Positions 1,487-63,270 of a DNA stretch of 64,000 nucleotides are shown here, piece after piece. The DNA is from a virus. Positions within the stretch are counted from its first letter, which is position 1. Every line of letters starts with the position of its first letter. Under the pieces are notes generated by a model. It saw only the letters and a list, made by a program, of their open reading frames with translations, ran no database searches and was not told the DNA's origin. The stretch spans positions 17,860 through 81,859 of IMG/VR virus record IMGVR_UViG_3300005518_000002; one strand, written 5' to 3'. A program made the position numbers and the translations under genes.

Positions 1487-1493
1487 GATCGCC

Positions 1494-1832
1494 TCAGATG
1501 CTCGGGACAGGGCCGACGGCTACACGGACGTTGTACTCCAGGCGCAGGGAGCAGAACTTCTGGACGGTGTTGCCGACCCAGAACTCCGCCCAGAAGTCGC
1601 CCGCCGACGGGAACTCCGCGCCGGTCCAGGTGTGGGTCACCTGTCCTGTAAGGGGAGTGGTCACAGTGGCCAGGCCCGCAGTCGACGTACCGTCCACCGG
1701 CCTGAAGTTGAACACAGCCGTGTACCCGGTCAGGTTGATGGCTGCGCCCGCGCTGTCCAGGAACTGATAGACCAGCGGTGGGGGCTTCTCACCCTGAACG
1801 TACGGGCCGATCGTGACGGACGTAGCGGCCAT
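1494..1832 (-). CDS. BppU N-terminal-like Ig-fold virion protein
   Basis: AINLTGYTAVF...GQVTHTWTGAEFPSAGDFWAEFWV pattern. Confidence 0.6.
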   Translation of the reverse strand: MAATSVTIGPYVQGEKPPPLVYQFLDSAGAAINLTGYTAVFNFRPVDGTSTAGLATVTTPLTGQVTHTWTGAEFPSAGDFWAEFWVGNTVQKFCSLRLEYNVRVAVGPVPSI

Positions 1833-1834
1833 GG

Positions 1835-6432: not shown

Positions 6433-6442
6433 GATTCACCCC

Positions 6443-19375: not shown

Positions 19376-20632
<1,257 letters not shown>

Positions 20633-20691
20633 CTACCAGGGCCGTGCCCAAGGGTGGAACGGTAGAGGGTGAAACCCGATTCACCAAACGG

Positions 20692-37978: not shown

Positions 37979-40416
37979 CCACGGAAGAAAAGGATCAGAA
38001 GATGACCAAGGTTGTGTGCCCCGGGTGCCGGAAGGACTTCGTCCCGATCGCCTCGGGGAAGATCAAGGTCCACAGGATCAAGGGTGTGGAGTGCGAAGGG
38101 GTCGGCGAAGACCCGTACACCGGGGAGGAAGGCTCCCCGTCGGGCAGCCAGTGCCGGGTGTGCAAGGGACCGGTCGTGCTGGAGCCCAGCGGCCGCACCA
38201 AGCCCCACCTGACCCGCGAGCAGGTTCCGCAGCCGTGCGACGGAGGCAGCGACTGGCCGCTGGGTGTCTACCCGGACATCGAGGGTTCCACCCGGGGTCC
38301 TGCCCGCAGCGACGTCGCCACCGCGGGGGACGAGAGCTGGCGGCCGGGTTCCGGCTGGCAGCTGGCGGATCATGACCACACCTACGAGTGGGGCGACGAC
38401 AACAACGGCCACAGCGGCAGTTTCTGCACGACCTGCGGCAAGGAGGAGCCGCAGGACCCGCCGGACCGTCCGCTGATCTCCGGCGGATCCATGGGAGACA
38501 TGGAGGACGACCGTTTCCCGAGCGGCGGACACACGATGGTCGGCTCCGGAACGGTGAAGGCCCGTCCCGTCGATGCGGCGAACGACTTTCTCAGCGGCAC
38601 CCGGAAGGCCCTCACTCCCCCCGGCGCGGCCGACGACTTTCTCAGCGGCAGCGCGGAGGATGACGGAGACGACGACGAGAGCAGTGGTCCGGGCTCCTGG
38701 TTCGAGGCCCGGTACGACGGGGATTGCGGCACCTGCGGAACGCACTTCGAGGCGGGAGACCGCATCCGTGCCGACGGGTCGGGCGACTGGGAGGCCGAAG
38801 ACTGCTGCGGGGACGAGATCGAGACCCCCGCGGAGAAGGCCGCGGAGAAGGCCCGGCAGCCGGTCACCGCTGACCCCTCCCTGCCGGTGCGCAATGGCCG
38901 GTACGTCGCCCCGCACCCCAAGACCGGCAAGCAGGCCAAGTTCACCCGCACCACCACCTTCGCCGAAGCCGTCTCCGACTCCATCGCTCTGGACCAGTGG
39001 AAAGGCCGGATGGAGGCCATGGGCCTCGCGCTCAATCCGGACCTGATCGCCAAGGTGCGCAGCGCGGTGCAGGGCCGTGTGCCCTACGAGGTCGCCAAGG
39101 AGCAGCGGGAGTTCCTGAACGGCGTGGTCGAGCAGGCCAAGCTTGCTGCCGGATCCAAGGACCGGGCGCGCAAGGGCACGATCCTCCACAAGCACACGCA
39201 GGAGATCGACTCGGGCCGCCGGACGCTGGCCGAGGTGCCCGAGGAGTTCCGGCCGGACGTCGCCGCCTACCTGACAGCGATGGAGGGAGCGGGTCTGCGC
39301 CTGCTGCCGCAGCTGATCGAGCGTTCCGTCGTGACCACGGAGCTGGACGTCGTCGGTACGTTCGACCGGATCGTCGAAGTCCTGTGGGACCAGGAGGCAC
39401 AGGATCTGAGCGGACGGCCGGTCCGGCTGCGCAAGGGTGACCACGTCATCGGGGATGTGAAGTCCGGCGCCAGCCTGCTGTTCGCCTGGCCGGAGATCGA
39501 GATCCAGCTGGCCATCTACGCGCACGCGGTCAACGAGAACGGCGTGGCCGTCCCCGACGGACCCCGGGGCCAGACCACCTGGCGCTGGGCTCCGCTGGCC
39601 GAGTTCGGGGTGCCCGCAGTGCGTCAGGACGTCGGCATCGTCATGCACATGCCGTACGGCGAGAAGACGTGCGAGCTGCACCTGGCCGATCTGGTCGAGG
39701 GCTGGCGCGGAGCGCAGCTGTGCAAGGTCGTCCGCGAATGGCGCAGGATCAAGTTCCCCGACGCGCCGTTCTTCCGCCATGTCGAGCTGGTCAAGGAGGC
39801 GCCCCGGGAGGACCGCCCCACCGGCTTCGACGTGACGCCGACCGGCGAGAGCTGGGAGGAGCGGTTCCGCGCCGTGCAGACCAAGGAGGAGGGCAGTGCG
39901 CTGTGGCGCGAGGCGAAGGCGGCCGGAATGCCCCCGGACGAGCTGAAGCGGCTGACCGGCCTGGTCCGTCTCCCGGCCGTCGTTCACGCAGCGGCAGGGG
40001 ACCACGCAGACTCCGAGCCGCTGCCTTCCCCGGAGCTCTCCGAAGCGCTGCATCACAAGCGTGAGGCTGACAGTGCTCTGGACCAGCAGGAGCGGTACGG
40101 GGGGTCCGGGGGAACCTCCCGGGCCGAGGACCCGTGGCCCACGTGGGAAAGCCGGTTCCGCGCCGTGCAGACCAAGGAGGAGGGCAGCGCGCTGTGGCGC
40201 GAGGCGAAGGCGGCGGGTGTCGTGCCTGTCGAGCTCAAGCGGCTGACCGGCCTGGTGAAACTGTCCCCTCCCACCCTGGAGGAACGCGCCGCCGCAGTGA
40301 CCACCCGGGCCGAAGCGTCCGCCCTGTTCCAGGAGATGCGAGACAACGTGGAGACGATCGGTAAGCCCCGTATCGCGGGGCTGGTAAAGATCATGCAGGA
40401 GGCTCTACCGGCCTAG
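37975..40416 (+). CDS. PD-(D/E)XK exonuclease (RecE/Cas4-like) with N-terminal Zn-finger segments and repeated C-terminal helical unit
   Basis: TRTTT, KGTILHKHT, GTFDRI, IGDVKSG, IQLAIYAHA; multiple CxxC. Confidence 0.75.
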   Translation: MTTEEKDQKMTKVVCPGCRKDFVPIASGKIKVHRIKGVECEGVGEDPYTGEEGSPSGSQCRVCKGPVVLEPSGRTKPHLTREQVPQPCDGGSDWPLGVYPDIEGSTRGPARSDVATAGDESWRPGSGWQLADHDHTYEWGDDNNGHSGSFCTTCGKEEPQDPPDRPLISGGSMGDMEDDRFPSGGHTMVGSGTVKARPVDAANDFLSGTRKALTPPGAADDFLSGSAEDDGDDDESSGPGSWFEARYDGDCGTCGTHFEAGDRIRADGSGDWEAEDCCGDEIETPAEKAAEKARQPVTADPSLPVRNGRYVAPHPKTGKQAKFTRTTTFAEAVSDSIALDQWKGRMEAMGLALNPDLIAKVRSAVQGRVPYEVAKEQREFLNGVVEQAKLAAGSKDRARKGTILHKHTQEIDSGRRTLAEVPEEFRPDVAAYLTAMEGAGLRLLPQLIERSVVTTELDVVGTFDRIVEVLWDQEAQDLSGRPVRLRKGDHVIGDVKSGASLLFAWPEIEIQLAIYAHAVNENGVAVPDGPRGQTTWRWAPLAEFGVPAVRQDVGIVMHMPYGEKTCELHLADLVEGWRGAQLCKVVREWRRIKFPDAPFFRHVELVKEAPREDRPTGFDVTPTGESWEERFRAVQTKEEGSALWREAKAAGMPPDELKRLTGLVRLPAVVHAAAGDHADSEPLPSPELSEALHHKREADSALDQQERYGGSGGTSRAEDPWPTWESRFRAVQTKEEGSALWREAKAAGVVPVELKRLTGLVKLSPPTLEERAAAVTTRAEASALFQEMRDNVETIGKPRIAGLVKIMQEALPA

Positions 40417-40519
40417 GCGATTTAGCAAAATCCCCGTATCATGGGTGGGGTAGCAGTACCCCACCCACTCACAGGTTCAAGCACTCACAGGTTCACAGGC
40501 TCACAGAAGAGGCAGGAAC

Positions 40520-41116
40520 ATGACCACTCAGGCAGACCCGTTCAGCACCCAGAAGCGCGAGGCCGACGAATTCCTCTCCGGTGGCGGCTCCACCATGATC
40601 GCGGCCAAGTGGCCCACCGTCGGTGCCGTCGTGGAGGGGACCATCACCGCGTGGGAGGGTCCCGTCCAGAAGACCGACATGGAGTCCGGGGAGCTCCTGT
40701 ACTTCGAGGCCAAGAAGATGGTCAAGGAGTCCGACCTGAGGGGCAACCCGGCCACCGCACGCAAGGCCATGGAGCTCCGCGTCGATCTCCAGTGCGAGGC
40801 GACCGGCATCACCTGGAAGACCAACCAGTACATCGAGGAAGAGGTTCCGGACGACGACGGCATGCGCCGCATGTACATCAGCGGAGCTCTCCAGAAGGCG
40901 TTCGCCGCAGCCAAGGAGGCCGCGGGCACCGACGGTGTTCCCGCGCCGCTGGAGACCGGAGCGTACGTGAAGATCACCCGGACCAAGTCGAAGAAGATGC
41001 CCAACGGGTTCTTCGCCTACACCTTCGAGGGTGAGTGGACCCCCGCCAAGCAGAACGCCAAGGCGGCGGACGGCTTCCTGAGTGACGACGCGGAAGAGAA
41101 CCCGTTCGCCGAGTAG
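40520..41116 (+). CDS. Single-stranded DNA-binding protein
   Basis: OB-like beta pattern, acidic tail DDAEENPFAE, follows exonuclease. Confidence 0.6.
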   Translation: MTTQADPFSTQKREADEFLSGGGSTMIAAKWPTVGAVVEGTITAWEGPVQKTDMESGELLYFEAKKMVKESDLRGNPATARKAMELRVDLQCEATGITWKTNQYIEEEVPDDDGMRRMYISGALQKAFAAAKEAAGTDGVPAPLETGAYVKITRTKSKKMPNGFFAYTFEGEWTPAKQNAKAADGFLSDDAEENPFAE

Positions 41117-41127
41117 TCCCCCATGCA

Positions 41128-41161
41128 GAAGGCCCCCGGGAATCTCTCCCGGGGGCCTTCT
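41128..41161. terminator. Bidirectional terminator
   Basis: AGAAGGCCCCCGGGA-ATCTC-TCCCGGGGGCCTTCT between convergent genes. Confidence 0.85.
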
Positions 41162-41181
41162 GTTGTGCGAGGTCTCGTGTA

Positions 41182-41325
41182 CTACTCGCTGGTCCTGCCC
41201 TCTTCGCCGCAGTGGCACTCATCGGTCGACTGAGCATCTGGGTGGTGCGCGGCCATGTGCTCCAGCATTTCCCCGAATCCCTCGGGGATACCGGCCTTCG
41301 TCAGCAACTTTTCCCAGATATCCAT
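41182..41325 (-). CDS. Small hypothetical protein
   Basis: 47 aa, GAAGGAGG RBS. Confidence 0.5.
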   Translation of the reverse strand: MDIWEKLLTKAGIPEGFGEMLEHMAAHHPDAQSTDECHCGEEGRTSE

Positions 41326-41357
41326 TACGTACCCTCCTTCAACAGCTGTGTGGAGCC

Positions 41358-41900
41358 TCAGGCAGCGTTCTGAGGACTCCGGGGCCGCAGTCCGGCACGG
41401 GTGGCCGGGGTCCAGTCCACCCGCTCCAGACGGGCCCGCTGAGCGGCAGGAAGAGGGAACGCAGGCTCCCCCGCCCAGTCCAGTCCGAGCCAGCGCAGCC
41501 AGGCCGCGTCGCACTCGTTGTCATCCGTGAACTCGACGCCGGAGCGCTTGTACGCAGCCATGATCATCGCTGCCTTGTCCCCTGTCCTGCCCAGCGCGTA
41601 CGCCTTGAGCGTGCTCGGGTTGACCTCCACATAGGGGAATCCCCGGCTCAGCAGCTCGACCCGCACGGCTCCGTGGACCATCGGGATCTGCCGGGCGGAG
41701 GCCCCCTTGAGACCGGCGCGGATGTCCTCCAGGATCACCAGGTCCGGCCAGGCGTCGAGCAGCGCGACCGCCAGATGATCGCGGATGTGCAGCAGACGGC
41801 CGTCTCCCCCGCCGTCCTTCGTCCTGATCAGTCCGGTGGAGCCGTCCGGATAGGCGAGCCCGGTGCGGGTGAGCGCAGCGTCTATTCCCATGATCTTCAT
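41358..41900 (-). CDS. ruvC: RuvC-like Holliday junction resolvase
   Basis: IMGID...TGLA, LVILED, VNPSTLKAYALG, DDNECDA. Confidence 0.85.
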   Translation of the reverse strand: MKIMGIDAALTRTGLAYPDGSTGLIRTKDGGGDGRLLHIRDHLAVALLDAWPDLVILEDIRAGLKGASARQIPMVHGAVRVELLSRGFPYVEVNPSTLKAYALGRTGDKAAMIMAAYKRSGVEFTDDNECDAAWLRWLGLDWAGEPAFPLPAAQRARLERVDWTPATRAGLRPRSPQNAA

Positions 41901-41996
41901 GTCGTTCCTCCGTGGTCTGTTTGATTAAATCAACCGTACCACCTAGGATGGAACAGGAGTGCATCGTGAACACCGACCAGATGATCAAGGAGTGGT

Positions 41997-42697
41997 ATGG
42001 CTCTCGACCCGGCGGCGAAACCCGCCTATGACGCTCTTGTGGAAGAACACAACGCTCTGCTGAAGGAAGTGGGACGCAGTCCCCTGACCCGCGCACAGCT
42101 GGCGGGGGTGCGCACCCAGCTCTCGTACGCCGCCCGCGGTTTCCGCATCACCTCTCTCATGGTTCCCCGCGAGGGAGAGAAGGGCGAGAACTTCTGGAGG
42201 GGCCTCGCGAGCATCCGTAAGAACCTGGCGGCCGCCCGCGCCGGACTGGAGGAGCGATGAGCTTCACCACAGGACAGCTCGGCATGAAGGCATACGAGAT
42301 CTACGTGGCCGAGGAGATCTCCCAGGAAGCGGCCTGTGCCCGGGTGGGCACAGGCCGCAACAACCTGCGCCGGGTACTGGAGATCATCCGGAACGACCCG
42401 AGCGAGGAACTGCTGCTCCAGCTGAAAGCCGGAGAGATCTCCCTGATGCAGGCACTGGCGGACAGCCGGAAGAACATGGACATCCCGGACCGGCTCAGTG
42501 TTCAGCAGATCCGCACCGCCATGGAGCGCTTCGTCGGATTCGACAGTGTGCGTGCCGAGTTCACCGACGCGCTGCTGCTCCGGGTGCCTGCCGATGAACT
42601 CGCGGAGTTCGAGCGCAGGCTGTGCGCCAGCCGCGCTGCCACCTGGAACCTGATCAACGCAATCCGGAAGACCAACGAACAGAGGATCACAGAATGA
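41997..42697 (+). CDS. Two hypothetical genes (41997-42260; 42257-42697, HTH-like)
   Basis: RBS, ATGA coupling; ISQEAACARVGTGRNNLRR. Confidence 0.6.
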
Positions 42698-43506
42698 GCG
42701 AGATCATGAAGGACGGCGAACTCCGGTTCGTCATCGAGCACCTGAGCGCCAACCTGCTCGAAGTCGACCCCGCCGTCCAGCGGGACATCAGCCAGGCCCG
42801 GGTGAAGAAGATCGCCAACAACTTCGCCGAGCACAGTCTCGGAGTCCTGGTCGTCTCCCGCCGGGGAGGCGTCACCTCGGAGCCCCGCTACGTCGTCCTG
42901 GACGGCCAGACCCGCCTGGAGGTGATCCGCCAGGTCGCCGGAACGGCGGAGACCACCATGCCCGTGCTGTGCCAGGTGTACCTCAACCTGAGCCGCAGGG
43001 AGGAGGCGGAGATCTTCCTCACGCACAACGACCGGGCCGCCGTGCGCAAGCTGGACGGCTTCCGGATCTCCCTGGTGGCGCAGGAGCAGTGGGCCGTGGA
43101 GATCAACGCCGTGGCCGACCGCTACGGCTACCACGTGAACAAGGACAAGGATCCCGGCCACCGGTTCCTGGCCGTGGGTGTCGCGGAGCGGCTGTACCGC
43201 GGGGAGCGGGGCCTGGACGTTCTCGACCGGACGTTCGACACGATCAACCGGGCCTGGAACCACACCCCCAACGCCGCTTCCGCGGAAGCGGTCATCGGAC
43301 TGGGGCTGCTCTACCAGCGCCACCCCGGGGACATCGACTTCAAGGGACTGGCGAGCAGGCTGGCCAAGGCAGGCAGCCCGCAGCAGTTCATGGGGGTCGT
43401 GGCTCAGCACCGGCACGCCCTGGGCATCACCATGCCCGAGGCTGCCTACCGGTACGCGGTCCAGCTGCACGACAAGGGCCGCAAGTCCCGCCGTCTGAGC
43501 GGCTGA
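42694..43506 (+). CDS. ParB/Srx-fold (DUF6551-like) protein
   Basis: VDPAVQRDIS..RVKKI, VVSRR, YVVLDGQTRL, EEAEIFL..N. Confidence 0.75.
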   Translation: MSEIMKDGELRFVIEHLSANLLEVDPAVQRDISQARVKKIANNFAEHSLGVLVVSRRGGVTSEPRYVVLDGQTRLEVIRQVAGTAETTMPVLCQVYLNLSRREEAEIFLTHNDRAAVRKLDGFRISLVAQEQWAVEINAVADRYGYHVNKDKDPGHRFLAVGVAERLYRGERGLDVLDRTFDTINRAWNHTPNAASAEAVIGLGLLYQRHPGDIDFKGLASRLAKAGSPQQFMGVVAQHRHALGITMPEAAYRYAVQLHDKGRKSRRLSG

Positions 43507-43583
43507 CGGACACGGGCGGGGGCCGTCGGGGCTCCCGCCCTGCCGTACGATCTAGCTCAACGACCACGGACTGAGGAGAACCA

Positions 43584-45218
43584 GTGAATACGAACACGCA
43601 GCTCCCCGGGGAGGACGATGCCGGGACCGAAGGTGTCTGGACCTTCACGGACCAGTACAACGAGACGTTCACCGTCACCGGGACGTTCCTGGGCGTGGGG
43701 TCCTCGCACCGGCCGCGCCACAAGGGTCATGAAGCGGGTACGTTCATCCCCCGCCGGGAGCACTGCTCCACGTGCCGCTGGACGGAGATCCGCATCTTCG
43801 TGGAGGCCGGGGAGCGCACCCGGTACGCCGTCGTCAACCGTGGCGTGTCCATCGTTCCCGGTGAACGGGAGCTGGTCACCTGCGAGAGGTTCACCACCGG
43901 ATTCTCCGTGGTGGAGGGTGTCACCACCCGCAAGACCCAGAGGGACGGCAGCCAGGTCGTTGCCCTGACCCTCCCGGCCGCCCGTGCGCTGGCGCAGGCG
44001 GCCGCCCATGACGAGAGCATCCGGGACGCGTACGTCAACCGGGCCACCGTCTGAGCACATCCGCACAACGACCAGGAGACCGACATGAACAGACCCTCCG
44101 TAACCACCTTCGCCGAAACCGCCGTCGTCTATGCCGTGATCGAAGGCCGTACGGACGAAGCCCGACGACTCCTCGGCAACATGCTGGACGACGAGCTGCG
44201 GGACTACCACCGCCAGGTCAGCACAGTTCTCGACCTGGTCAACGACGAAGGCAACGGACGTCGCCTGGAGGGCGGGTTCTGATGACCGACTTCCCCTGGA
44301 CGGATCCTCCCTGTACCTGCGAGGAGTGCCGTCCGGGGCCCGGCATCGACTACGCCAGCACGCACCTGAGCCGGATGCTGAACAGGCTGGACGAGGAGCG
44401 TGCCCAGCGGGCTGTGGAAATCACAGCATGGATCGACGGATGTCACGGCAACCCCGTGATCAAGAAGGAGCCCTCATGATGAAGCTCATCGGTTGCCTGG
44501 TGTTTCTCACCGCGCTAGCGCTGATCTTCCTGATAGCCACGAACAAGATCTGACCGTGGGCAGGCACCGCGCCGGGCCACCGGTCACACCACGCGCCGCG
44601 GAGGCTGTACCTCACCCTCCGCGGCGCGTACTGCGTCAGGAGTACGAGCGGCTGTACCGCTTCTACAAAGACCTCCAGCGGGAGCACAGTGCCCTTCTGG
44701 ACAGGCTGGAGCAGGACACCGAGGAGGTTCCCCTCCCCCTTCCGGCCGACTGAGAAATCGACCAAGGAGAACAGATCATGACCATCCGCTTCATCGCTGT
44801 GGCCGGGTACATCAACAAGGTCACAACGGACGGCCGCATCCTGGAACACACCCCGGATGTTCCCCTCGCTCCCGAGGACATGCTTTCACTGATGATCCAC
44901 GACCATTCCCGGGGTGAGCACGTCGGCCGGATCGACCGGGTGAGCCTGATCGGGGACCAGATCGTCCTGATCGGCATCCTCTTCGAGGACAGCTGGGCCA
45001 GGCCCTCCGTCGATGCGCTCCGCGCCGGTACGGACAGGCTCAATCTCGACGTCGGCTCCCGTAGTTCCAGCTGGGACTCGCGGGACTCCGGGAAGCCCTT
45101 CAAGACGTATGCCGAGGTGATGCGCATCCACGACTGGTGGATCCGGGCCGCACATGTCCACAGCAATCCCTGCTGGCCCCTCCCGGCGGCAGACGTCTGG
45201 GCGGACCCCGGATGCTGA
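43584..45218 (+). CDS. Run of hypothetical genes (43584-44054, 44085-44282, 44282-44479, 44476-44553, ~44556-44753, 44778-45218)
   Basis: RBS-led or coupled ORFs with GC3 bias. Confidence 0.6.
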
Positions 45219-45288
45219 CTGCCCCTCCCGCCACAGGGGGTTCTGCTGTTAAGGTAAATTGACCCGATTTACTGAAAGGGGTACCACC

Positions 45289-45540
45289 ATGACCACCACC
45301 AAGCGACCCAGGGGACGACCCCGTCCCATCGAGACGATCGAGCGGGACGAGAAGATCCTCAAGCTGCTCCAGCAGAGCGGATCGTTCACCCGCAATCAGA
45401 TCGCCGAAGCCCTGGGCCTGGACACCACCATCACCTACCTCTCCCTGGACCGGCTGCGCCGCCAGGGACGCGTCCGCAAGTGCGCGGGCACCGGCTCGAA
45501 CACCCTGTGGACGAGCGAGGCGAATGCCCCGTGCCCCTGA
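45289..45540 (+). CDS. Winged-HTH regulator with AT-hook-like RPRGRPR
   Basis: ILKLLQQSGSFTRNQIAEALGL...SLDRLRRQGRV. Confidence 0.7.
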   Translation: MTTTKRPRGRPRPIETIERDEKILKLLQQSGSFTRNQIAEALGLDTTITYLSLDRLRRQGRVRKCAGTGSNTLWTSEANAPCP

Positions 45541-45742
45541 TCACCGGACCTGCGGACGAGCAGGAAGAGGCGCTGGGACCGCGGGAGATCTGCGAGCTGG
45601 GAGAGATCTGCGTAAAGATGGCCCGGCAGCTGCGAGAAACGAGCGAGGCAGCGGCAGCCATCTTCAGATCGCTCCCCGCCGCGGGAGCCCTGCTGACGTC
45701 CCCGGACGCCATGCGCTGGACCCCCGGGGAAGGAGTTGCGCT

Positions 45743-46372
45743 GTGAGCGGTGACCGGCTCACCGTGGCTGTGTGCATCCCGACCATCGACGGCCGGGAGC
45801 GCATGCTGGCCAACGCCATGCGCACGGTAAGGATCCAGCGCCGCAAGCCCGACCAGATCCTGATCGAGCGGGACCGGGAAAGGACGGGCGCAGCAGCCAC
45901 ACGCAACCGGCTGCTGGCCCGGGTGGAGACCGACGTGATCGCCTGGCTCGACGATGATGACCTTCTGGAGCCGAACCACCTGATCGCCAACCTCCGGGTG
46001 CTCAAGGAGCGGCCGGAGGTCACACTCGTCTACCCCCGGCCGCGCATGGTCGGCGGGAAGGACCCCACGGCAGTGACTTACCAGGGACGGTTCCCGACCC
46101 CTCCCTGGGGCCTGCGCTGGTGCCCGGAGTTCGACAAGCACCTGAGGATGCGCGGCTCCTTCATCCCCATGACGCACCTCGTGCGCACGCAGGCGGTGCG
46201 CGACGCCGGAGGATTCCCGCCCGGTGAAGTCCTGCCGGACGGCCGGTACCGGGGTGAGGACGAGGCGTACCTGATCAGGCTTCTCGATCACGGCGCGGTG
46301 TTCGAGCACCTGGACGCGAAGACCTGGAAGTGGGTCGTGCACACCCGGCAAACCGCCGGACGGGGTGTATAA
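45743..46372 (+). CDS. GT2 glycosyltransferase
   Basis: VAVCIPT, GAAATRNR, WLDDDD, GEDEAY. Confidence 0.85.
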   Translation: MSGDRLTVAVCIPTIDGRERMLANAMRTVRIQRRKPDQILIERDRERTGAAATRNRLLARVETDVIAWLDDDDLLEPNHLIANLRVLKERPEVTLVYPRPRMVGGKDPTAVTYQGRFPTPPWGLRWCPEFDKHLRMRGSFIPMTHLVRTQAVRDAGGFPPGEVLPDGRYRGEDEAYLIRLLDHGAVFEHLDAKTWKWVVHTRQTAGRGV

Positions 46373-46625
46373 CTACCCGCGGATCAGGAGGAATCGGGCA
46401 ATGACCGTTTTGACCGATTCGTTAAACCACTCCCTGACCAGCGAAAACTCCTAGGAGAAGAGGGGCTGGGCCTCGTTGAGGGGTGGTTCTGGAAGGTCCG
46501 GAGAAGGGAACCTCCGGACTTTCCTACTCTACGGACCGGTAACCAGAGCGGATCAGTCCGTTCGGTTACGGATTAATTAAACAGGCATCCGTATAACGAT
46601 ACCTGCCGGACGAGGGAGAACGATC

Positions 46626-47027
46626 ATGGGAAACAACGGACGGACGTACCGGGGTGTGCCGGTTCCGAGCCGTCTGCGCGAGATCGAAGAGAAGGGCGAC
46701 CAGGATCATGATTTTTCCTACATGGGGTGGAAAGATGGCGTAGATGCAGCTTGGGCGGCGGGCATCCGCAATGAACCCGACCCTGGGCAAGGAGAACCGA
46801 CCATGACAGACCTACTCGAAGACAGCACCGATCCGCCCGAGAAGCGGGACAGTGAGGTACCGGCCGGGGCGGAAGTCGAAGCACTGTGCGCGGTGTTCAA
46901 CGAGAACGGGACCAGGGCCCGGGAGATCGTCAGGAGCATGCCCCGGCGGGACCGGGCGATCTTCACCTTCTGGCTGCTGGAGCTCACCAACATCATCGAC
47001 GAGATCCAGCTGGGTGACCGCTTGTAG
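46626..47027 (+). CDS. Hypothetical protein
   Basis: 133 aa, GAGGGAG RBS. Confidence 0.55.
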   Translation: MGNNGRTYRGVPVPSRLREIEEKGDQDHDFSYMGWKDGVDAAWAAGIRNEPDPGQGEPTMTDLLEDSTDPPEKRDSEVPAGAEVEALCAVFNENGTRAREIVRSMPRRDRAIFTFWLLELTNIIDEIQLGDRL

Positions 47028-47290
47028 GACAGGACACCCGGACAAGACAGGACAGGACACCAGGACACGGTGTCCTGTCCTGTCTTTGTCTTGTCTGCCC
47101 CCCTTGTCCAATGCGCCCCCGGGTGCGCCCGTACACCTGTCCGTGCGCCGTCCCGGGACAGGACATCCCGGCAGGACGCTCCTGGACAGGACACGGTGTG
47201 CCAGTCCACCTGGACAAATATGCCGCTGGACATGTCCAGTCAACGTCCTGGACAACCCCGGGTAATACAGCACTGGACAAGCGCGCTGGC
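47027..47290. repeat. GGACA/TGTCC repeat array with 18-bp perfect inverted repeat; candidate clt
   Basis: Dense GGACA copies; AAGACAGGACAGGACACC (47044-47061) / GGTGTCCTGTCCTGTCTT (47069-47086). Confidence 0.75.
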
Positions 47291-47344
47291 TGCCCCGTAC
47301 ATTGACTGGACCGATTAAAGAAAATCGACCAGGGAGGACAGGCC

Positions 47345-48445
47345 ATGCGAACCAGGACAGAGCGCAGGACACGGATGGTGTCCAGGACGGTGGGGGACAA
47401 GACACACCCCGTCTCCCAGGAGTACGAGGTCCAGGTCCCGGTTGTCCCGACAGACTGGGACGCCGTCGCGCTGTCCACTGTCCGGGCCGCGACCACCCTG
47501 TCCGTCCTGGGCGCCATGGCCTGGAGCACGGTGTCCATCGGGGACCTGCTGTCCATGGTGGCCCCGAGCTGGGTGGCGTACACCGTCGCCGGGGTCTTCG
47601 ACCTGGCCTGGATCGTCTGCATGATCCTTGAATGGCTGGGCCGCTACGACCCCGCCCGCGCACGCATTCCCCGCCGGGCTGGCTGGTCGGCCCTGGGCAT
47701 CAGCATGGTCCTCATCGCAGGTCACGGCTATGCATACGGCGTGCTCAACGGCCACGGACGGAGCTTCCTGGCTGTGGGCATCGGAGGTGCGCTGGTCTCC
47801 GCCATCGCGAAGAGCATGTGGTCGGTGGTCATGAACCACACGGCCGTGAAGCTCTCCGCGGAACACGAGGAATGGCTGGCGGCGGAGCGTGCAGAGACCG
47901 GCACGGAGCTGGCCCTGACGGCTGAGCGCCGCAGGCTCGCCCGGACACGGGACTCCATTGAAGCCGAGCGCCGCGCACTGGGGCAGGACACAACGCCGGA
48001 GCCGGACGTCCAGGACATCCGGCCGGAGCCGGACGGGACACTGTCCGCCTCCCTGGACACGGACAAGGAAAAGGCTGTCCGGGCACTCGCCAAGGCCATG
48101 GACATCCCCGTGGAGCTGTTCGGCCTGGACAGGACAGCCGGACAGGACACGGACAGCCGGACAGGACACGGACAGCCGGACAGGACACGGACAGCCGGAC
48201 AGGACGGCCGGACAGGACGGCCGGACAGGACACGGACAGTCGTCCCCCTGGACAGGACACGCAGTGTCTCGTCCTATGTCCTGTCCCTCCTGTCCGAAGC
48301 GCCGGACATGGACGGGACAGCGGTCAGGACAGCGGTCCGGCTCGAATTCCCGGGCGCTTCGGAAGACAGCATCGCCAAGGCGATCACCCGCACACGTCTG
48401 AAGATCAGGAACACCGAGAAGAGGGATGGAGAGAACCATGGCTGA
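47345..48445 (+). CDS. SpdB-like plasmid spread protein (4 TM + coiled coil + repeat linker + C-terminal HTH-like)
   Basis: AWSTVSIGDLL, AGVFDLAWIVC..LEWL.RYDP.RA..PRRAGW; linker built from GGACA repeats. Confidence 0.7.
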   Translation: MRTRTERRTRMVSRTVGDKTHPVSQEYEVQVPVVPTDWDAVALSTVRAATTLSVLGAMAWSTVSIGDLLSMVAPSWVAYTVAGVFDLAWIVCMILEWLGRYDPARARIPRRAGWSALGISMVLIAGHGYAYGVLNGHGRSFLAVGIGGALVSAIAKSMWSVVMNHTAVKLSAEHEEWLAAERAETGTELALTAERRRLARTRDSIEAERRALGQDTTPEPDVQDIRPEPDGTLSASLDTDKEKAVRALAKAMDIPVELFGLDRTAGQDTDSRTGHGQPDRTRTAGQDGRTGRPDRTRTVVPLDRTRSVSSYVLSLLSEAPDMDGTAVRTAVRLEFPGASEDSIAKAITRTRLKIRNTEKRDGENHG

Positions 48446-49043
48446 GCACAACGGCTGGCCGTCTGCGCCGGACTACCCGGCAGGCATGCAGCGTCCGGCG
48501 AACCGGACCACGCTGACCGCGGACGAAGCCACAGCACGGGGCACGGACGGATTCGGGCACCCTCTGGGACCCGACTCCACGTTCCCCAACGGCACCGGAG
48601 AGATCTTCCCCCCGGGCACCCGGGGCACGATGTCCTCGGGCAAGGGGGGAAAGCACAGCAACCTGCTGGATCTGATCAAGACCCTGGAGGACGGCGATCT
48701 GGGTGACCAGGTCGAGATGCACGCCTATGTCGAGGACGCACGCGCACTGTTCATGCGCATCGCAGTGATCATCGCACTGGCGTCCGGCGGGATGAAGGAA
48801 GACGCCAAGCGCAAGGCCCGGGAGTCCGCGGACGGCCGCATGACCCTCGGGGACAAGATCAAGCTGGCTGCCGCGCTGCGGAAGATCTCCCGCAAGTTCG
48901 GCGCGGCCGCCGACCACGCCGCTGACGCGGCCGCCGACATGGCAGCCTCCTGGCGGATCATGGAAAGCTGCCTGGACGATCTGGAGCAGGGAGCGGCAAA
49001 GCCGCAGGCCAAGCGCGGTTTCAACATCACTCGCGGTCGTTAG
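48438..49043 (+). CDS. TraA-like plasmid transfer protein
   Basis: Helical RKISRKFGAAADHAADAAADM region; located between spdB-like and traB. Confidence 0.55.
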   Translation: MAEHNGWPSAPDYPAGMQRPANRTTLTADEATARGTDGFGHPLGPDSTFPNGTGEIFPPGTRGTMSSGKGGKHSNLLDLIKTLEDGDLGDQVEMHAYVEDARALFMRIAVIIALASGGMKEDAKRKARESADGRMTLGDKIKLAAALRKISRKFGAAADHAADAAADMAASWRIMESCLDDLEQGAAKPQAKRGFNITRGR

Positions 49044-49046
49044 GGG

Positions 49047-51020
49047 GTGGCCAGGATGAGCATCAACTTCGGTGCACGATTCGGCTGGCTGATGGCTGAG
49101 AAAACGGCTCCCTTTTCGGCGCCGGTACTGCTCAGCCTGGCTGCTATGCCGCTTGCCGTTCTCGCCCACTGGGGCTGGGGGGACGATCCGGTCTGGATCG
49201 CTGTCCTGGCTGTGGTCTCCACGATCCTGACCGCCTCCACGTACTGGACCTGGGGCCGCCGCAGCCGGGAGAGCCAGCGGGTGGCCACGGTGTTCACCGC
49301 CCTGGTACTGGGCTGGATCACCTTCGCGGCCGCGTCCAGCCCCTTCAACTCCGGCATGGTCAGTGCCTGGCTGCTCGGAACCGTCGCTCTCGGCATCCTG
49401 TGGGGTATCCGGCACGCCGGTCTCAAGCCCTCCAGCGAGAACGACAAGCAGGTCAGCGAGCCCGACCCGCTGGGCGGTCGTGTGGGCGTGCTGAAGGGAG
49501 CCCGGACAAAGAAGATCAAGGGGGACGACGAAGCGGTGGAGGCACGGGTGCAGATGCCCCGGGGCGGAGCCACCGTGGCGGATGTCCAGGCAGCCCGGGA
49601 CACCATCGCTTCGGCCGTCAGCATGGGGACGGACCAGGTCACCGTCCGGCCGGTCAAGGGACGTGCGGACCAGGTTGACCTGGCCTTCACCCAGCCCGTG
49701 GACATGGACAAAGTCCTGGCCTGGACAGGTCCGTCCCACCCCGGGAAGTCCATCGCGGATGCCCCGATCCGTCTGGGCTACCGCATGAACGGCAGCGAGA
49801 TCGCCTGGTGGCTGGTCGGGTCGGGAGACCCCGCCAACCCCCGGGTGCTGTCCCACACGCTGTGCACCGGCATGACCGGCTCCGGGAAGACGGAGACGAT
49901 CTGCACGGCGATCATCGAGATGCGCTCCCGCACGGACATCGTGCCGATCGTGGGAGACCCCGCCAAGTTCGCGCAGAGCTTCGGGGACATCGCGGACTGC
50001 CTGGAGATCGCGGCCAAGACCCCGGCCGAGGTCAAAAAGCTGATCAAGAACCTGCCGGACGCCGTGGTCTACCGTGCCGGGCTGCTGGGCACCCTGACCA
50101 GGGCAAACGGCCAGGTCGGGTACAAGGAGTGGATCCCGGAGTGCTACACCCTGCACGGGATCCCGGCAGTGTTCATCGACATCGAGGAAGCGGCCGACGT
50201 CGCCGATCTGATCGCTGATGAGCTGGACGAAGCAGTGCGCAAGCTCCGCTCCATAGGCATCCACCTCTGCATCTCGATGCAGACCGCACCGCACGACAAC
50301 ATGGCGCGCAAGACCCGCGGGCAGTTCGGCCAGTCGCTGGCCCACGGGTGCCAGGAAGCCCAGGATGCCAAGTACTCCCTGAACTCGAACACTCTCGACG
50401 CAGGGGCGGACCCCACCAAGTGGGGCAACGAATCCCCCGGCTCGCTGTATGCGGAGCTGGTCGGCACGGACAAGCTGCACTGGTCCGTGGACGGCAAGGT
50501 GCTCGCCACGACGTACGAGCAGAAGCGCACGTCGATCAGGGACACGAAGCGGTACTGGGCACACCTGGACGCCGGGACGAAGCAGATCCTCGGCCGGGGG
50601 ATCATCCTCCAGGACGAGCAGTTCCTGGCCGCGCTGCCGAGCGTTCCGGCCGACAGGGAAGTACCCGAAGAGGATGTGAGGCGGGACCTACACGCGGTCC
50701 CGACCGACGAAGGAGTGGTGGATGTGACACAGGAACTTCAGCCTCCGGTAGGTCCCCGGGTGGCCTTCGGGTCGCCCGAGCGTGACCGGATGAGCACCGA
50801 GGATGCACGTGCGCTGATCGAGGGAAGGATCGACGATCTGGAAGCCGGGGGCCGCGATTCGGTGGGCTTCGGAGACCTCGAAGATCTCGCCGCAGTGACC
50901 GGCCGCCAGCGCACCTGGATCTACCAGGAGCTGACACGGCTGGTAAAGGAGGGACGCCTGGTGGAGGGAACGAAGCCCCCGTACGCCATCAAGAGGCGTT
51001 CCGAGACAGCTGTCAGCTGA
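49047..51020 (+). CDS. traB: TraB-type FtsK/SpoIIIE conjugative DNA translocase
   Basis: N-terminal TMs, WTGPSHPGKSIADAPIRLG, Walker A GMTGSGKT, IDIEEA, RSIGIHLCISMQ, AGADPTKWGN, C-terminal wHTH (RQRTWIYQELTRL..EGRL). Confidence 0.85.
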   Translation: MARMSINFGARFGWLMAEKTAPFSAPVLLSLAAMPLAVLAHWGWGDDPVWIAVLAVVSTILTASTYWTWGRRSRESQRVATVFTALVLGWITFAAASSPFNSGMVSAWLLGTVALGILWGIRHAGLKPSSENDKQVSEPDPLGGRVGVLKGARTKKIKGDDEAVEARVQMPRGGATVADVQAARDTIASAVSMGTDQVTVRPVKGRADQVDLAFTQPVDMDKVLAWTGPSHPGKSIADAPIRLGYRMNGSEIAWWLVGSGDPANPRVLSHTLCTGMTGSGKTETICTAIIEMRSRTDIVPIVGDPAKFAQSFGDIADCLEIAAKTPAEVKKLIKNLPDAVVYRAGLLGTLTRANGQVGYKEWIPECYTLHGIPAVFIDIEEAADVADLIADELDEAVRKLRSIGIHLCISMQTAPHDNMARKTRGQFGQSLAHGCQEAQDAKYSLNSNTLDAGADPTKWGNESPGSLYAELVGTDKLHWSVDGKVLATTYEQKRTSIRDTKRYWAHLDAGTKQILGRGIILQDEQFLAALPSVPADREVPEEDVRRDLHAVPTDEGVVDVTQELQPPVGPRVAFGSPERDRMSTEDARALIEGRIDDLEAGGRDSVGFGDLEDLAAVTGRQRTWIYQELTRLVKEGRLVEGTKPPYAIKRRSETAVS

Positions 51021-54519: not shown

Positions 54520-54586
54520 GCGTGTTGTGAGCCGCTTGGCGCAGGGTGTACTGTTTAACTAAACAACTGAAACAGACCAGGGACCA

Positions 54587-55345: not shown

Positions 55346-57295
55346 ATGGCCAGGGACAAGTACCGGCACCGGACCGAGGACCGGGGGCGCGGCATCGTCG
55401 CCGTCTTCTCGGAGGGTCCGAGCAGCGAGGTGAACGCGGTCGACCGCGAAGGCCGGTCCTTCGCCAAGCGGGAGCTGACGTTCGAGCCGGGGCTGACCGG
55501 CAGGCCGGTTTCGGGCGGCGGCCGGTTCTACGACCATGGCGCCATGTACGAGGCGCAGCAGATCTTCGTCACGAAGAAGCTCACCCCGAGGGAGGACTGA
55601 TCATGGCACGTAAAACCGACTACCCCACAGGCAATCCGAACGGCATGTCGTTCATCTGCAACAGGTGGGTGTTCACCGGTCCGCAGGGCTACCGCGTCCA
55701 GAAGCAGGGCGACAAGTGGAGCGTCGTCTCGTACACCGCGAACGACACGCGTCCGGTGTCCAGCGGTGCCCGGATGACCGAGGACGACGCGCACGCGCTG
55801 GCAGCCGAGCTGGCCGGAGGTCACTGACCATGCCGATTCGCGATGTCCTCCAGGCAGCCCTCCGTCGGCTCAGCTGGTCTCAGCACGAGATCGACACGGC
55901 GCTGACCGAGCTCCAGGAGGACGTACTGACGGACCCCACGCTGTCCGACCACACGGCCTACCGGGAACTGGCGGACGCAGTGGTGGAGCAGATCGGCTGG
56001 CTCTCCGGGGACGGGGACAGCTGGGACGGCGACGACGACGAACTGACCATCCTGAAGAACTGGCTCACGGTCTCCGGGAAGTGGCTGCCGGAGATGTACG
56101 CACACCTGACTGCGGAGAAGATCAGGTTCTGCTGCAACTGCCTCGCGGGAGCGGGCTCGTGCGATGCGGCGGCCGACCGGATCGACCCGTGGCTCTCCAG
56201 CACGGAGCACGAGAGCTGGGGAACTCTGGTCCGGAAGTCGGACGGCACCGAAGTGCCCTGGAAAATCATGAACGCCGTGGAAGTCCTGAGGAACAAGGAG
56301 AAGTGACCATGAAGAAGACGATCACCATCCGGCTCACGCTGGACAACATCGAGACCGCACTGAAGCCGGGCGACGTGTTCGCCGACGACCCCGAGTTCGG
56401 GGCTGTCCGGTCCGCCCGCAAGCACGCCAACGGCACGGACGCCATGGTGTACACCGACAAGGGCAGCCGGGACTCCCTCGGCCTGCCGCAGACCGTGCGC
56501 GTGATCCGGGAGACCTGATCATGGAGAAGAAGCTGTACCTCGTGGGGGTTTCGCAGGGGGCTCCGGTGAGCGTCCTCGGCCCGTACCAGGAGAGCGAGCT
56601 CCGTCCGCTCATGACCGGCCGCAGGCAGCTGGAGGACGCGGGAGCCGACGAAGGCGTCTACCGGGCGCGGGCGCTCAGCGCCGAGGAAGCGCTGGCGCAG
56701 GTCGAGCGGGACCTGAGGGAAGGGAACTGATCATGGGACAGCGGGAACGGCTGGAAGCGCTGCGCAAGGACGCGAATGATCCGACACTTGAGGCCGGAGA
56801 CCTCGTGTTCTGCCGGGGCATCTACGCCAAGGTTCGGATGATCAGGGAACACAAGCCGGGTACACACTCGTGGTCACCGATCAAGAACGAAATGACGGCC
56901 CGGGAGATCGTGACAGACCTCGGCTCACGGTGGTTCGGACGCTGAGAGACCGGTCGGGTGCAGGGGCTGACGTCCCTGCACCCCCTCAGGCCGTCAGCCT
57001 GGAACAAGATCACAGACCAGCACGAGGAGAGATCATGGAAAAGGGATACACCGTCGTCCAGGTCACGGACCTGGCCCCCGGGGACCGGATCGCGCAGGTG
57101 TTCCCCGTCAGGGAACGCGGCATCGTCCGCAAGGGGGAGCGGGTGGTGAAGATCCTGGACGTCCAGCCGGAGACGGTTGAGCGCTGGGGCGAGAAGCTTC
57201 CGGTCTGCCGCGTCCTCGGTATCGACCCTGATCAGGGGGACGGGGTCGTGAAGTGGCTGGCCGTGCCGTCCCGCCGGTACGTCGTCGTCCGCTGA
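55346..57295 (+). CDS. Small early genes (55346-55600, 55603-55827, 55830-56306, 56309-56518, 56521-56730, 56733-56945, 57035-57295)
   Basis: Tightly packed ORFs with GGAG RBS and TGA-NN-ATG junctions. Confidence 0.65.
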
Positions 57296-57297
57296 CT

Positions 57298-57326
57298 GAG
57301 GGGCCCTTCGGGGCCCCTTCTTCCTT
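57298..57326 (+). terminator. Intrinsic terminator
   Basis: GAGGGGCCC-TTCG-GGGCCCCTTC followed by TTCCTT. Confidence 0.8.
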
Positions 57327-57415
57327 AAAAATCACGGTTTATTTTTAAAGCCCCAGGTCAGGGCGTTGATCGAAACTTTACAACGAGCCGGATTAGCTGT
57401 TTACTTAAAGCAGAA
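57327..57415 (+). promoter_or_regulatory. AT-rich promoter region
   Basis: UP-like AT tract, TTTACA...TACTT spacing, overlapping CTGTTTACTTAAA box. Confidence 0.6.
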
Positions 57416-57419
57416 CAAC

Positions 57420-57800
57420 AAAACAGCACGACCGAGCCACCGGGGGTCCAATCCCCCCGGAGCCCGGGGAAGATCGGGAAGAGGACGCTACGGTCAGCCT
57501 CACCGGATCACCCCACAGGGGCAGCGGATCGGGAGTCGAGATCTTCTCCTCCCCCGCAGGATCGGAGCCCGGAACATAACCGGGCGGGTCACGCAGCAGA
57601 CCTCAAGCGCTCGTCGCAGCTGGAGACAGGCACCGGACCTCCGCAAAACCGGTAGACGAACCGAGTAGGAGATCGGGCGCGGCTGGCATGAGGGTCAGTC
57701 ACCGTACCTCCCAAAGGACGAGTCGGAAGCACCGGCCAGCAACGGCGTAAGGGCAGCGAGCTACAGACTGCATCTCACGGGGCCGCCGGTGACGCACTAC
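57420..57800 (+). ncRNA. Candidate long structured RNA
   Basis: No credible ORF; stems GGGGAAGATC/GATCTTCTCC, GCCCGG/CCGGGC, GTCACCG/CGGTGAC. Confidence 0.5.
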
Positions 57801-57806
57801 ACACGA

Positions 57807-57884
57807 CCCTCCGCTCACAGTCGAAGTCCAGATATGACCCCGCACTGGAGTGACTGCCCGTTCGAGTCGGGCCCGGAGGGACCA
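57807..57884 (+). ncRNA. tRNA-like element lacking D-arm and anticodon, ending ACCA
   Basis: CCCTCCG/CGGAGGG acceptor; T-arm GCCCG-TTCGAGT-CGGGC; inner stems CAGTC/GACTG and TCCAG/CTGGA. Confidence 0.65.
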
Positions 57885-57922
57885 ACCGCACACCAACTGA
57901 AGATCACAACAAGGAGCACACC

Positions 57923-58126
57923 ATGATGGAATTCCCCCTCGGCACGCCGGTCGCCTACAAGGGGTCCGAGCGGTGGCCCAGCGCCATCGCTGCTGTGGTC
58001 GTCGAGCCCTTCATCGTGAACGGCCAGACCGACCCCGAGCGCGTGATCATCGACTGCGGGCCGACCCGGTACGCCGCTCCTTACGACCGGGACACCCGGA
58101 TCGTCTGGACCGACCAGCTGACCTGA
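57923..58126 (+). CDS. Small SH3-like hypothetical protein
   Basis: 67 aa, AAGGAG RBS. Confidence 0.65.
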   Translation: MMEFPLGTPVAYKGSERWPSAIAAVVVEPFIVNGQTDPERVIIDCGPTRYAAPYDRDTRIVWTDQLT

Positions 58127-58804: not shown

Positions 58805-58875
58805 GCCTCCATGGGGTAATGGATGCCCGCCGGGTTCTCAGCCCGGAGATGCCGGATCGTGACCGGCTGGAGGTA
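58805..58875 (+). tRNA. Atypical tRNA-Glu(CUC)
   Basis: GCCTCCA/TGGAGGT acceptor; D GGGT-AATGGAT-GCCC; AC CCGGG-TTCTCAG-CCCGG; T GCCGG-ATCGTGA-CCGGC. Confidence 0.75.
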
Positions 58876-58916
58876 CGCAGGAACGACCAACTGAACAGGA
58901 CCACAGGGAGATCGCT

Positions 58917-59206: not shown

Positions 59207-59344
59207 CCCTCTGTCCGGATGGAACGGGCCGCGACCGCCTCGGGCGGGGAAGCCGGTCCGGACGGAGGCCATGCCGGGGATATCCAGCGGGTGCTCGCGT
59301 GATCAGCACGCCCCCGGGGGTTCGAGTCCCCCGCCCGGTACGCA
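59207..59344 (+). ncRNA. 12-bp hairpin ending CCA followed by second D-arm-less tRNA-like element
   Basis: CCTCTGTCCGGA/TCCGGACGGAGG-CCA; then GCCGGG.../GGGGG-TTCGAGT-CCCCC-GCCCGGT. Confidence 0.55.
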
Positions 59345-62143: not shown

Positions 62144-62214
62144 GCCTCCATGGGGTAACGGATGCCCGCCAGGCTTTCAATCTGGAGATGCCGGATCATG
62201 ACCGGCTGGAGGTA
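62144..62214 (+). tRNA. Atypical tRNA-Glu(UUC)
   Basis: Same body as 58805-58875; AC arm CCAGG-CTTTCAA-TCTGG; T-loop ATCATGA. Confidence 0.75.
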
Positions 62215-62248
62215 CGCACCGCAACTGAACAACGACCAAGGAGCTCAC

Positions 62249-63224: not shown

Positions 63225-63270
63225 CGTCAGACGGCCGTACAAGCCCGCCGGGGGGCCAATCCCGGCACCC

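Follow-up and report, generated by a model that had tools for sequence, protein, structure and literature searches.

Host tRNA-processing enzymes are used for the maturation of several phage RNAs. The stable RNAs from the tRNA region of T4 (species 1 and 2, RNAC/RNAD) and the C4 antisense RNA of P1 and P7, which is processed by RNase P, all depend on this machinery; they are 77–140 nt in length and are made together with tRNAs. Large phage-associated noncoding RNAs that adjoin tRNA genes are known as well, as exemplified by GOLLD and ROOL. Other RNAs act in place, such as the HK022 put RNA, which must stay tethered to the polymerase. Between the 2 enzymes that trim tRNA precursors, an ACCA end makes a difference, as it favors RNase P and disfavors RNase Z. 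Signals of this kind also border messages: in plant mitochondria, tRNA-like t-elements at mRNA ends direct cleavage, with RNase P and RNase Z as the presumed enzymes (Forner et al. 2007, PMC1920247). Hammerhead ribozymes flank genes in prophage operons, where they were proposed to divide long transcripts into gene-length mRNAs (Perreault et al. 2011, PMC3088659).

Here, we analyzed a locus in an uncultured phage in which a tRNA-like element, a hammerhead ribozyme, and true tRNAs are found in one operon. The window, by which we mean the whole 64,000-nt stretch of DNA that was analyzed, comprises bases 17860–81859 of the 81,859-bp IMG/VR phage record IMGVR_UViG_3300005518_000002, and coordinates refer to the window unless stated otherwise. 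A preliminary description of the stretch at 57420–57884 had proposed a structured noncoding RNA of about 460 nt that ends in a tRNA-like CCA domain. As a whole, the observation was partly confirmed and its interpretation partly supported. The explanation that we consider best, to which we assign a probability of about one half, is that the stretch forms the ORF-less first unit of an early transcript, from which an RNA would be released at a tRNA-derived processing signal.

The noncoding stretch and the signals preceding it

The phage genome has direct terminal repeats and a GC content of approximately 65%, and carries genes for a primase-polymerase, a helicase, and a portal protein; the phage is from soil and belongs to the Streptomyces type. 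No cultured close relative was found among GenBank phages by blastn with a 631-nt region and an 8-kb query, and these queries gave no match to the region itself; the few DNA matches of the phage were to Mycobacterium and Streptomyces phages. Contigs near-identical to the phage are present in rhizosphere and soil metagenomes, and those from 4 DNA runs differed from it by only a few SNPs. Among the soil and rhizosphere contigs compared, all of which are very close relatives, the stretch was 99–100% conserved. The sequencing runs listed as containing sequence of this phage included no RNA runs. Elsewhere in the window, a minus-strand ORF of 1013 aa (9657–12698) showed portal/head-protease-like PHROG matches, while its N-terminal residues 31–211 matched a family labelled RNA ligase.

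Region 57296–57922 lies in an early-type region of tiny, co-oriented orphan ORFs, and the orphan ORFs that flank it differ from phage to phage. For the downstream ORF, one relative was found, with 73% identity (P0002), on a 3.6-kb Logan contig. The region itself is noncoding. The periodicity of GC content by codon position, which is clear in the flanking ORFs (57035–57295 and 57923–58126), is absent from approximately 57226 to 57946, no ORF of at least 8 aa opened by ATG, GTG, or TTG with an RBS-like motif was found in the stretch, and a tblastn search with its six-frame peptides against related DNA returned neither a relative nor a remnant of a protein gene; on these 3 grounds, the stretch is therefore classed as noncoding. 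The preliminary description had called it the longest gene-free stretch of the window. That it is free of genes was borne out, while its being strictly the longest was not, given other low-periodicity stretches at 1816–3616 and 19471–20806, which sit under long ORFs.

In the body of the presumed RNA, U is strikingly scarce (10%, versus 24% A), and several SD-like GGAG and GATC words occur there without start codons. The hexamer GATCGG is present in 4 copies on one strand within 200 nt (57472, 57527, 57560, and 57671), compared to 43 in the 82-kb genome, and some of these copies lie inside SD-like words, e.g., AGGAGATCGGG. Enrichment of GATC as a signal was rejected, since GATC occurs at 9 per kb throughout the genome. 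An origin of replication at the stretch was dropped as a candidate as well: the replication genes and the turn in GC skew lie near 30–38 kb, and no iterons were found.

A series of putative regulatory signals is found at the upstream end. Just past the stop codon of an 86-aa ORF (57035–57295), a terminator-like hairpin can be read from the plus strand (GGGGCCC-TTCG-GGGCCCC, followed by TTCTTCCTT; 57300–57328), the counterpart of which in a related uncultured phage (G018) is GGCCCCCTCGGGGGCC followed by TTTTTTT. An AT-rich inverted repeat, TTAAAAAT-N8-ATTTTTAA, comes next, and is followed by the motif GCCCCAGGTCAGGG (57325–57363 for the two together, plus strand), which is common to the early-promoter regions of related phages; CAGGTCAG is also found in G018 and in 2 further relatives, G001 and G012. 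The only variants of run X13 in 57325–57363 fall at 57351 and 57362, positions that also vary between phages. In its fuller form, (GC)CAGGTCAG(G/A)G, the motif is common to the early-promoter regions of 4 phages: at 57350–57363 in the window, at approximately 760–775 in L301 (positions 36000–50000 of G018), and on the minus strands of L278 (approximately 6435–6448) and L279 (approximately 10722–10735). In G001, the CAGGTCAG motif belongs to an operator-like, long inverted repeat that is centered around TTGACA.

Further downstream, the box CTGTTTACTTAAA (57397–57409, plus strand) is a putative phage-specific promoter or operator element, judging by its recurrence: 4 copies are found in the window, versus 0.04 expected. 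The copy at 54551 is followed by a start codon 33 nt downstream, while the next start codon after the copy at 57397 is approximately 510 nt away. The preliminary description had placed a terminator and a promoter directly ahead of the RNA. The GC hairpin with TTCTTCCTT, the AT-rich region, and the recurring CTGTTTACTTAAA are visible in support of this; a consensus scanner, however, reported no sigma-70 promoter and no terminator in the region.

The tRNA-like element and the punctuation of the operon

The downstream end of the stretch is formed by a tRNA-like element of 78 nt (57807–57884, plus strand). A 7-bp acceptor (57807–57813 with 57874–57880), the first pair of which is C1:G72, stacks on the 5-bp T-stem of a T-arm with a TTCRANN loop (GCCCG/TTCGAGT/CGGGC, 57856–57872); these typical tRNA features are interrupted by one extra nucleotide, C57873, which is bulged between T-stem and acceptor. 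The discriminator A is followed by an encoded CCA, giving ACCA at 57881–57884. In place of the D and anticodon arms there is a long irregular hairpin (57813–57851) with the 7-nt loop CAGAUAU, just as the preliminary description had it. The span of 42 nt from acceptor to T-arm equals that of a normal tRNA, and the central hairpin has approximately the length of the anticodon/D stack, but the element offers no D-loop partner for the T-loop. The pair at position 3:70 is C:G rather than G:U, so that the alanine identity element is missing, as had been noted before. The kept acceptor and T-arm, the noncanonical remainder, and the position at an mRNA border, 38 nt before the next start codon, are all features of t-elements.

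The element is real and not a product of chance. The composite motif of acceptor, T-arm, and ACCA did not turn up on either strand in 200 rounds of dinucleotide shuffling of the complete genome, and a mean of 0.02 occurrences per shuffle was found when CCA was not required; the earlier claim of a tRNA-like CCA end, with all 3 parts intact, was thus upheld. Its folding energy had a z-score of −1.95. The Rfam tRNA model (RF00005, at least 29 bits) gave no match to 57807–57884 at E ≤10 in 801 nt or at E ≤0.1 in 10 kb, and ARAGORN did not call a tRNA at these positions.

The preliminary description had advised a scan against Rfam, and had compared the architecture to that of tmRNA or Y-RNA modules. 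In a scan of 57200–58000 against 4227 Rfam families at E ≤10, no family matched the stretch and nothing relevant was found, including GOLLD, ROOL, and skipping-rope. For tmRNA, there was no Rfam match, no gene called by ARAGORN, no RBS-led ORF, and no G3:U70; for YrlA and other bacterial Y RNAs, there was no Rfam match, and neither a TROVE (Ro60) nor an RtcB gene was found in the 82-kb genome. A gene for a CCA-adding enzyme was likewise not found in the phage. These results do not support the comparison, and neither do the relatives described below, which end the stretch in a hammerhead or a terminator-like hairpin.

Downstream of the element, the leader of the next gene (57894–57925, plus strand) contains the octamer CAACTGAA (57894–57901), an RBS (AAGGAG, 57911–57916), and the ATG at 57923 of a 67-aa ORF. 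The octamer is a recurrent motif, with 6 copies in the window versus 0.73 expected (54564, 57894, 58211, 58888, 62222, and 62473) and 9 in the genome as a whole (the other 3 at genome positions 1851, 2270, and 3029), all of which are on the plus strand and have an RBS and a start codon a short distance downstream. It begins 9 nt past the ACCA of the element, 1 nt past the hammerhead described below, 11 and 7 nt past 2 tRNA-Glu genes, and directly past the promoter box at 54551. These positions indicate that CAACTGAA marks the 5′ region of messages; it may mark the mature 5′ ends of mRNAs or bind a factor. In general, the octamer is usually found directly 3′ of a tRNA, ribozyme, hairpin, or promoter box. 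It was absent from the related phages examined.

The operon that follows is punctuated by ribozymes and tRNAs. Across the window, Rfam models detected 3 tRNAs (58805, 62144, and 63271) and one type II hammerhead (Hammerhead_II, RF02276; 58146–58209; 39.3 bits versus a gathering score of 37). The hammerhead lies one gene downstream of the noncoding stretch, between 2 small ORFs, with its 3′ end abutting CAACTGAA, and a hammerhead is also present at the comparable slot of G018. In this genome, the tRNA-like element takes the position that is otherwise held by the ribozyme or by a true tRNA. None of the 7 other tRNA or tRNA-like genes of the genome encodes CCA; they end in A/G-C-G/T, and a GC-rich hairpin precedes each of them. 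The CCA encoded by the element may partly reflect the CA-rich leader, in which ACCAAC occurs twice.

Several other observations concern the tRNAs of this phage group. The window contains an unusual tRNA-Glu pair (CUC and UUC; 58805–58876 and 62144–62215) with the T-loop AUCRUGA, and ARAGORN called tRNA-Glu in at least 5 related phages (L279 10320–10391, L301 9110–9181 and 10316–10387, L281 5788–5859, L280 10703–10774, and L282 5817–5889). The odd T-loop was confirmed in G012 and G018 only. This unusual tRNA-Glu is the best marker that we found for the group. Most canonical tRNAs of the relatives lack CCA, while odd tRNA-like elements of 66 nt and 97–99 nt end in ACCA. One of these, a 66-nt element at L301 4362–4430, carries a CCCC-GAC-GGGG hairpin in place of the anticodon arm and ends in ACCA, with a start codon 55 nt downstream. 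A second noncanonical tRNA-like element is found in the window itself at 59252–59341, with a TTCGAGT loop and no CCA; ARAGORN called it as a 90-nt tRNA-Ala(AGC), the Rfam tRNA model did not match it, and the trailer ACGCAGGAAC is common to it and tRNA-Glu(CUC).

A core shared with other uncultured phages and the predicted folding of the RNA

Relatives of the stretch are scarce. It is absent from 17 IMG/VR phages related via a nearby epimerase gene, as judged by blastn and nhmmer, and pattern and protein scans of IMG/VR returned only IMGVR_UViG_3300005468_000024, a member of the same species (99.7% identity) with 2 differences, both outside the RNA. A loose pattern combining T-loop, ACCA, and CAACTGAA, run on IMG/VR and metagenomes, found only the ends of bacterial tRNAs and tmRNAs among the matches listed, and scans of genome contigs with protein alignment A2 and with the pattern of the core described below gave nothing or chance matches. 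A pattern for the unusual tRNA-Glu of this phage (G000 in our set) did lead to G018. The locus of G018 is laid out in the same way, with a terminator and an AT-rich region followed by the motif GCCCCAGGTCAG and a noncoding stretch of approximately 375 nt that is poor in U (low in T). The place of the tRNA-like element of our phage is taken in G018 by a type II hammerhead, after which come an RBS and ATG. In L301, 6 matches to type II hammerheads are found between small genes (1176–3058 and 8619–8685).

Between the 2 stretches, a core of 56 alignment columns (57606–57661, plus strand) showed 75% identity, with a score that was reached by 1 of 1,000 dinucleotide shuffles; it was also the only match, at E = 4.6, when the G018 stretch was searched against our genome with nhmmer. 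The core contains the sequence GGAGAC (57622–57627) and can form 2 mini-hairpins, one pairing 57628–57630 with 57638–57640 around the loop CACCGGA, and the other pairing 57641–57643 with 57650–57652 around the loop CAAAAC. A pattern of the core motif, derived from the sequences of G000, G001, and G018, was found once in each of these 3 and nowhere else among 19 genomes. With a structure derived from the same three-sequence alignment on which it was scored, and with 3 family members, 95% of the cells were paired and 4 of the 7 pairs had changed on both sides, while slid controls were 5–50% paired and showed no two-sided changes. The third candidate member, G001, carries the core motif in a noncoding stretch of approximately 420 nt with 11% T, behind a CAGGTCAG promoter region; at the end of this stretch come a large terminator-like hairpin, then TTCTTATT, and then a second promoter. 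Only the similarity between the cores of G000 and G018 is significant among the 3: pairwise alignments of G001 were not, and its membership is based on the core pattern and 3 compensatory pairs. A covariance model of the core (R1) detected no further convincing member in the 19 related genomes. One weak R1 match, in a short intergenic region of G002, was set aside, as it seems to reflect a partial, fortuitous similarity to a terminator-like hairpin.

Since the relatives end the stretch with a hammerhead or a terminator-like hairpin, the tRNA-like domain is not a conserved part of the RNA. Rather, it is probably an interchangeable module for processing or 3′-end formation, presumably through RNase P. 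The preliminary description had also suggested that homologues be collected, and had raised the possibility of an unnamed class of phage noncoding RNA. Such a collection did recover the 56-nt core, in a candidate family of 3 members, the other 2 of which do not have the tRNA-like end. The term "unnamed phage ncRNA" is defensible, because the core recurs in 2 other uncultured phages, and the lack of an Rfam match is in line with it; the architecture that had been proposed for this RNA, however, was not supported.

Folding predictions gave a mixed picture of the RNA body. The complete 485 nt had an ordinary folding energy (z = −0.77), and sliding windows showed moderate excess stability at 57360–57560 only. 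Here, a 5′ domain is predicted (57424–57622, plus strand; pair probabilities 0.85–1.0), in which a closing helix (57424–57437 with 57609–57622) surrounds 5 hairpins (57440–57460, 57462–57522, 57524–57557, 57567–57585, and 57586–57603). For the 5′ 207 nt, z was −3.23 and 0 of 200 shuffles were as stable, compared to z = −1.61 for the minus strand, though the value of −3.23 is optimistic because the borders were chosen after folding. The predicted domain is not conserved in relatives, and the stretches of G018 and G001 were not unusually stable. One variant of run X13, 57456 C>T, changes a G:C to a G:U pair in hairpin 57440–57460. The middle 180 nt of the body had a z-score of +0.14. At its 3′ end, a hairpin in which CACCGGC/GCCGGUG encloses GCAG/CUGC (57730–57791, plus strand; pair probability 0.95–0.97) lies 15 nt upstream of the tRNA-like element, and matches the GC hairpins found ahead of each tRNA in the genome. 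The many stems that had been seen in the sequence at first are therefore found, at best, in the 5′ 200 nt (z = −3.2), and not in the RNA as a whole (z = −0.8) or in its middle part (z = +0.1). The first hairpin, CCGGGGGTCCAATCCC (57440–57455), matches at 15 of 16 bases a hairpin at 63248–63263, just upstream of tRNA-Leu(UAA).

A model for the locus, its rivals, and comparison with known systems

Under the explanation that we favor, transcription would start just downstream of the box at 57397, and yield a U-poor RNA (10% U) of approximately 400 nt (57410–57806), of which only the core of approximately 50 nt is shared with relatives. The 78-nt tRNA-derived element would serve as a processing signal, and not as a functional domain of the upstream RNA. 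The cut by host RNase P would fall between A57806 and C57807, at the 5′ border of the element, and would free the upstream RNA, the end of which would carry the 57730–57791 hairpin as putative protection of the 3′ end. The downstream message would start with the tRNA-like element or just after it, and carry the CAACTGAA leader. As the encoded ACCA would aid the binding of RNase P and hinder RNase Z, the message may retain the element as a cap-like structure at its 5′ end. Within the phage group, the element appears to be exchangeable for a hammerhead ribozyme or a true tRNA. Against acceptance of the element by RNase P speak the bulged C57873, the C1:G72 pair, and the A at position −1. As to function, our guess, made with low confidence, is that the released RNA is stable and acts in trans, bound by protein at its conserved core. 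In its fullest form, this would make the locus the founder of a new family of early noncoding RNAs of approximately 400 nt in soil actinophages, depleted of U for stability, built around a small conserved double-hairpin core, released from the 5′ end of the early transcript by a tRNA mimic for RNase P, a hammerhead, or a terminator, and acting in trans on a protein of host or phage during takeover, a picture that we regard as rather doubtful.

The core, the shared depletion of U, and the 3 different devices at the 3′ end argue for a maintained RNA; caution is called for by the weak folding signal, the small size of the family, and the hypervariability of the slot. A serious, albeit unlikely, rival is that the slot holds a cassette in which an ORF has decayed, a tRNA has degenerated into a pseudo-tRNA, and the core is leftover sequence. 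In G012, the equivalent promoter slot contains an ORF of 65 aa together with a tRNA-Glu-like gene and a tRNA-like element that is degenerate, which fits such decay as well, as do the orphan flanking ORFs that vary between phages, the SD-like words without start codons, and a body that for the most part folds no better than shuffles, also in G018. A relic would hardly be expected, however, to keep acceptor, T-arm, and ACCA perfectly while the rest of the tRNA is reshaped as a single clean hairpin, a pattern suggestive of selection on the top half; nor would a relic explain a core pairing that survives changes on both sides, or a low content of U that is shared with G001 (11% T) and G018 and looks like a maintained property. 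The six-frame search detected no protein remnant, and the 99–100% conservation among soil and rhizosphere contigs points the same way, though these are very close relatives.

Two further readings were considered. The stretch could be a cis-acting leader that works through its core hairpins or 5′ domain, and not as a free RNA, either for processive antitermination of the put or EAR type or for control of translation or stability of the downstream genes. Its place directly behind the early promoter region in all 3 phages would suit this role, as would the strong GC hairpins ahead of tRNAs that fill the downstream operon and the 2 small adjacent stem-loops that the conserved part can form. Yet in each phage the RNA is followed by a device that would separate it from what lies downstream (the tRNA-like element, the hammerhead, or the terminator-like hairpin), which is a poor fit with a put-type element tethered to the polymerase; moreover, the stems are only 3–4 bp, no known family matched, and the downstream genes differ between phages, leaving this reading quite improbable. 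Least probable of all is an integrated noncoding RNA of approximately 470 nt, the CCA domain of which works as a tRNA mimic as in tmRNA or YrlA; variants of this idea are that the domain might undergo repair by CCA addition, become aminoacylated, or serve to divert host toxins or defences whose targets are tRNA acceptor ends. It would account for an element that is tRNA-sized, with intact acceptor, T-arm, and ACCA, that encodes CCA where 0 of the 7 other tRNA and tRNA-like genes do, and the central hairpin of which has a loop of 7 nt and roughly matches the anticodon/D stack in length. It is disfavored by the relatives that share the core but have a hammerhead or terminator-like hairpin in place of the domain, by the lack of G3:U70, of a tag ORF, and of a match to any tRNA-mimic family at E ≤10, and by the absence of Ro60, RtcB, a CCA-adding enzyme, and a D-loop partner for the T-loop.

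Should release by processing prove true, the locus would present one RNA with a 3′ end made in 3 ways, by tRNA mimic, ribozyme, and terminator, and thus a natural experiment in the cutting of early transcripts by phages. The idea that phages, like organelles, employ stripped-down tRNAs to direct host RNase P would gain support, and the upstream RNA would be a candidate for a new regulatory RNA in Streptomyces-type phages, where few are known. Should the slot instead hold a decaying cassette, it would be a useful case of tRNA genes degrading into processing signals.

Compared to known systems, the locus combines features of several. Like GOLLD and ROOL, it would encode a phage noncoding RNA of several hundred nucleotides close to tRNA genes, but neither matched at E ≤10, the RNA is far less structured in terms of folding energy, and approximately 50 nt of it are conserved. 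With tmRNA and YrlA it shares an acceptor and T-arm, a long helix at the D/anticodon position, and a CCA end, while it differs from these in having no G3:U70, tag frame, pseudoknots, or Ro60 gene, and in that the domain is not kept in relatives. The T4, P1, and P7 RNAs are alike in being phage noncoding RNAs that use the host tRNA-processing machinery, as is predicted here; their sequences are unrelated, however, and in our locus the tRNA-like part is separable from an upstream RNA of approximately 400 nt without an Rfam match. The phage hammerheads follow the same operon logic, and occur both one gene downstream and in the comparable slot of G018; the tRNA-like element, in contrast, is not self-cleaving and would borrow a host enzyme. 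From the t-elements, finally, the element differs in its setting, a phage operon of a high-GC host, in its encoded CCA, in the single long hairpin that replaces the D and anticodon arms, and in that its cleavage is a prediction; it shares with them a noncanonical tRNA-like fold, a kept acceptor and T-arm of the GGTTCRANYCC type, and a leader position upstream of an mRNA.
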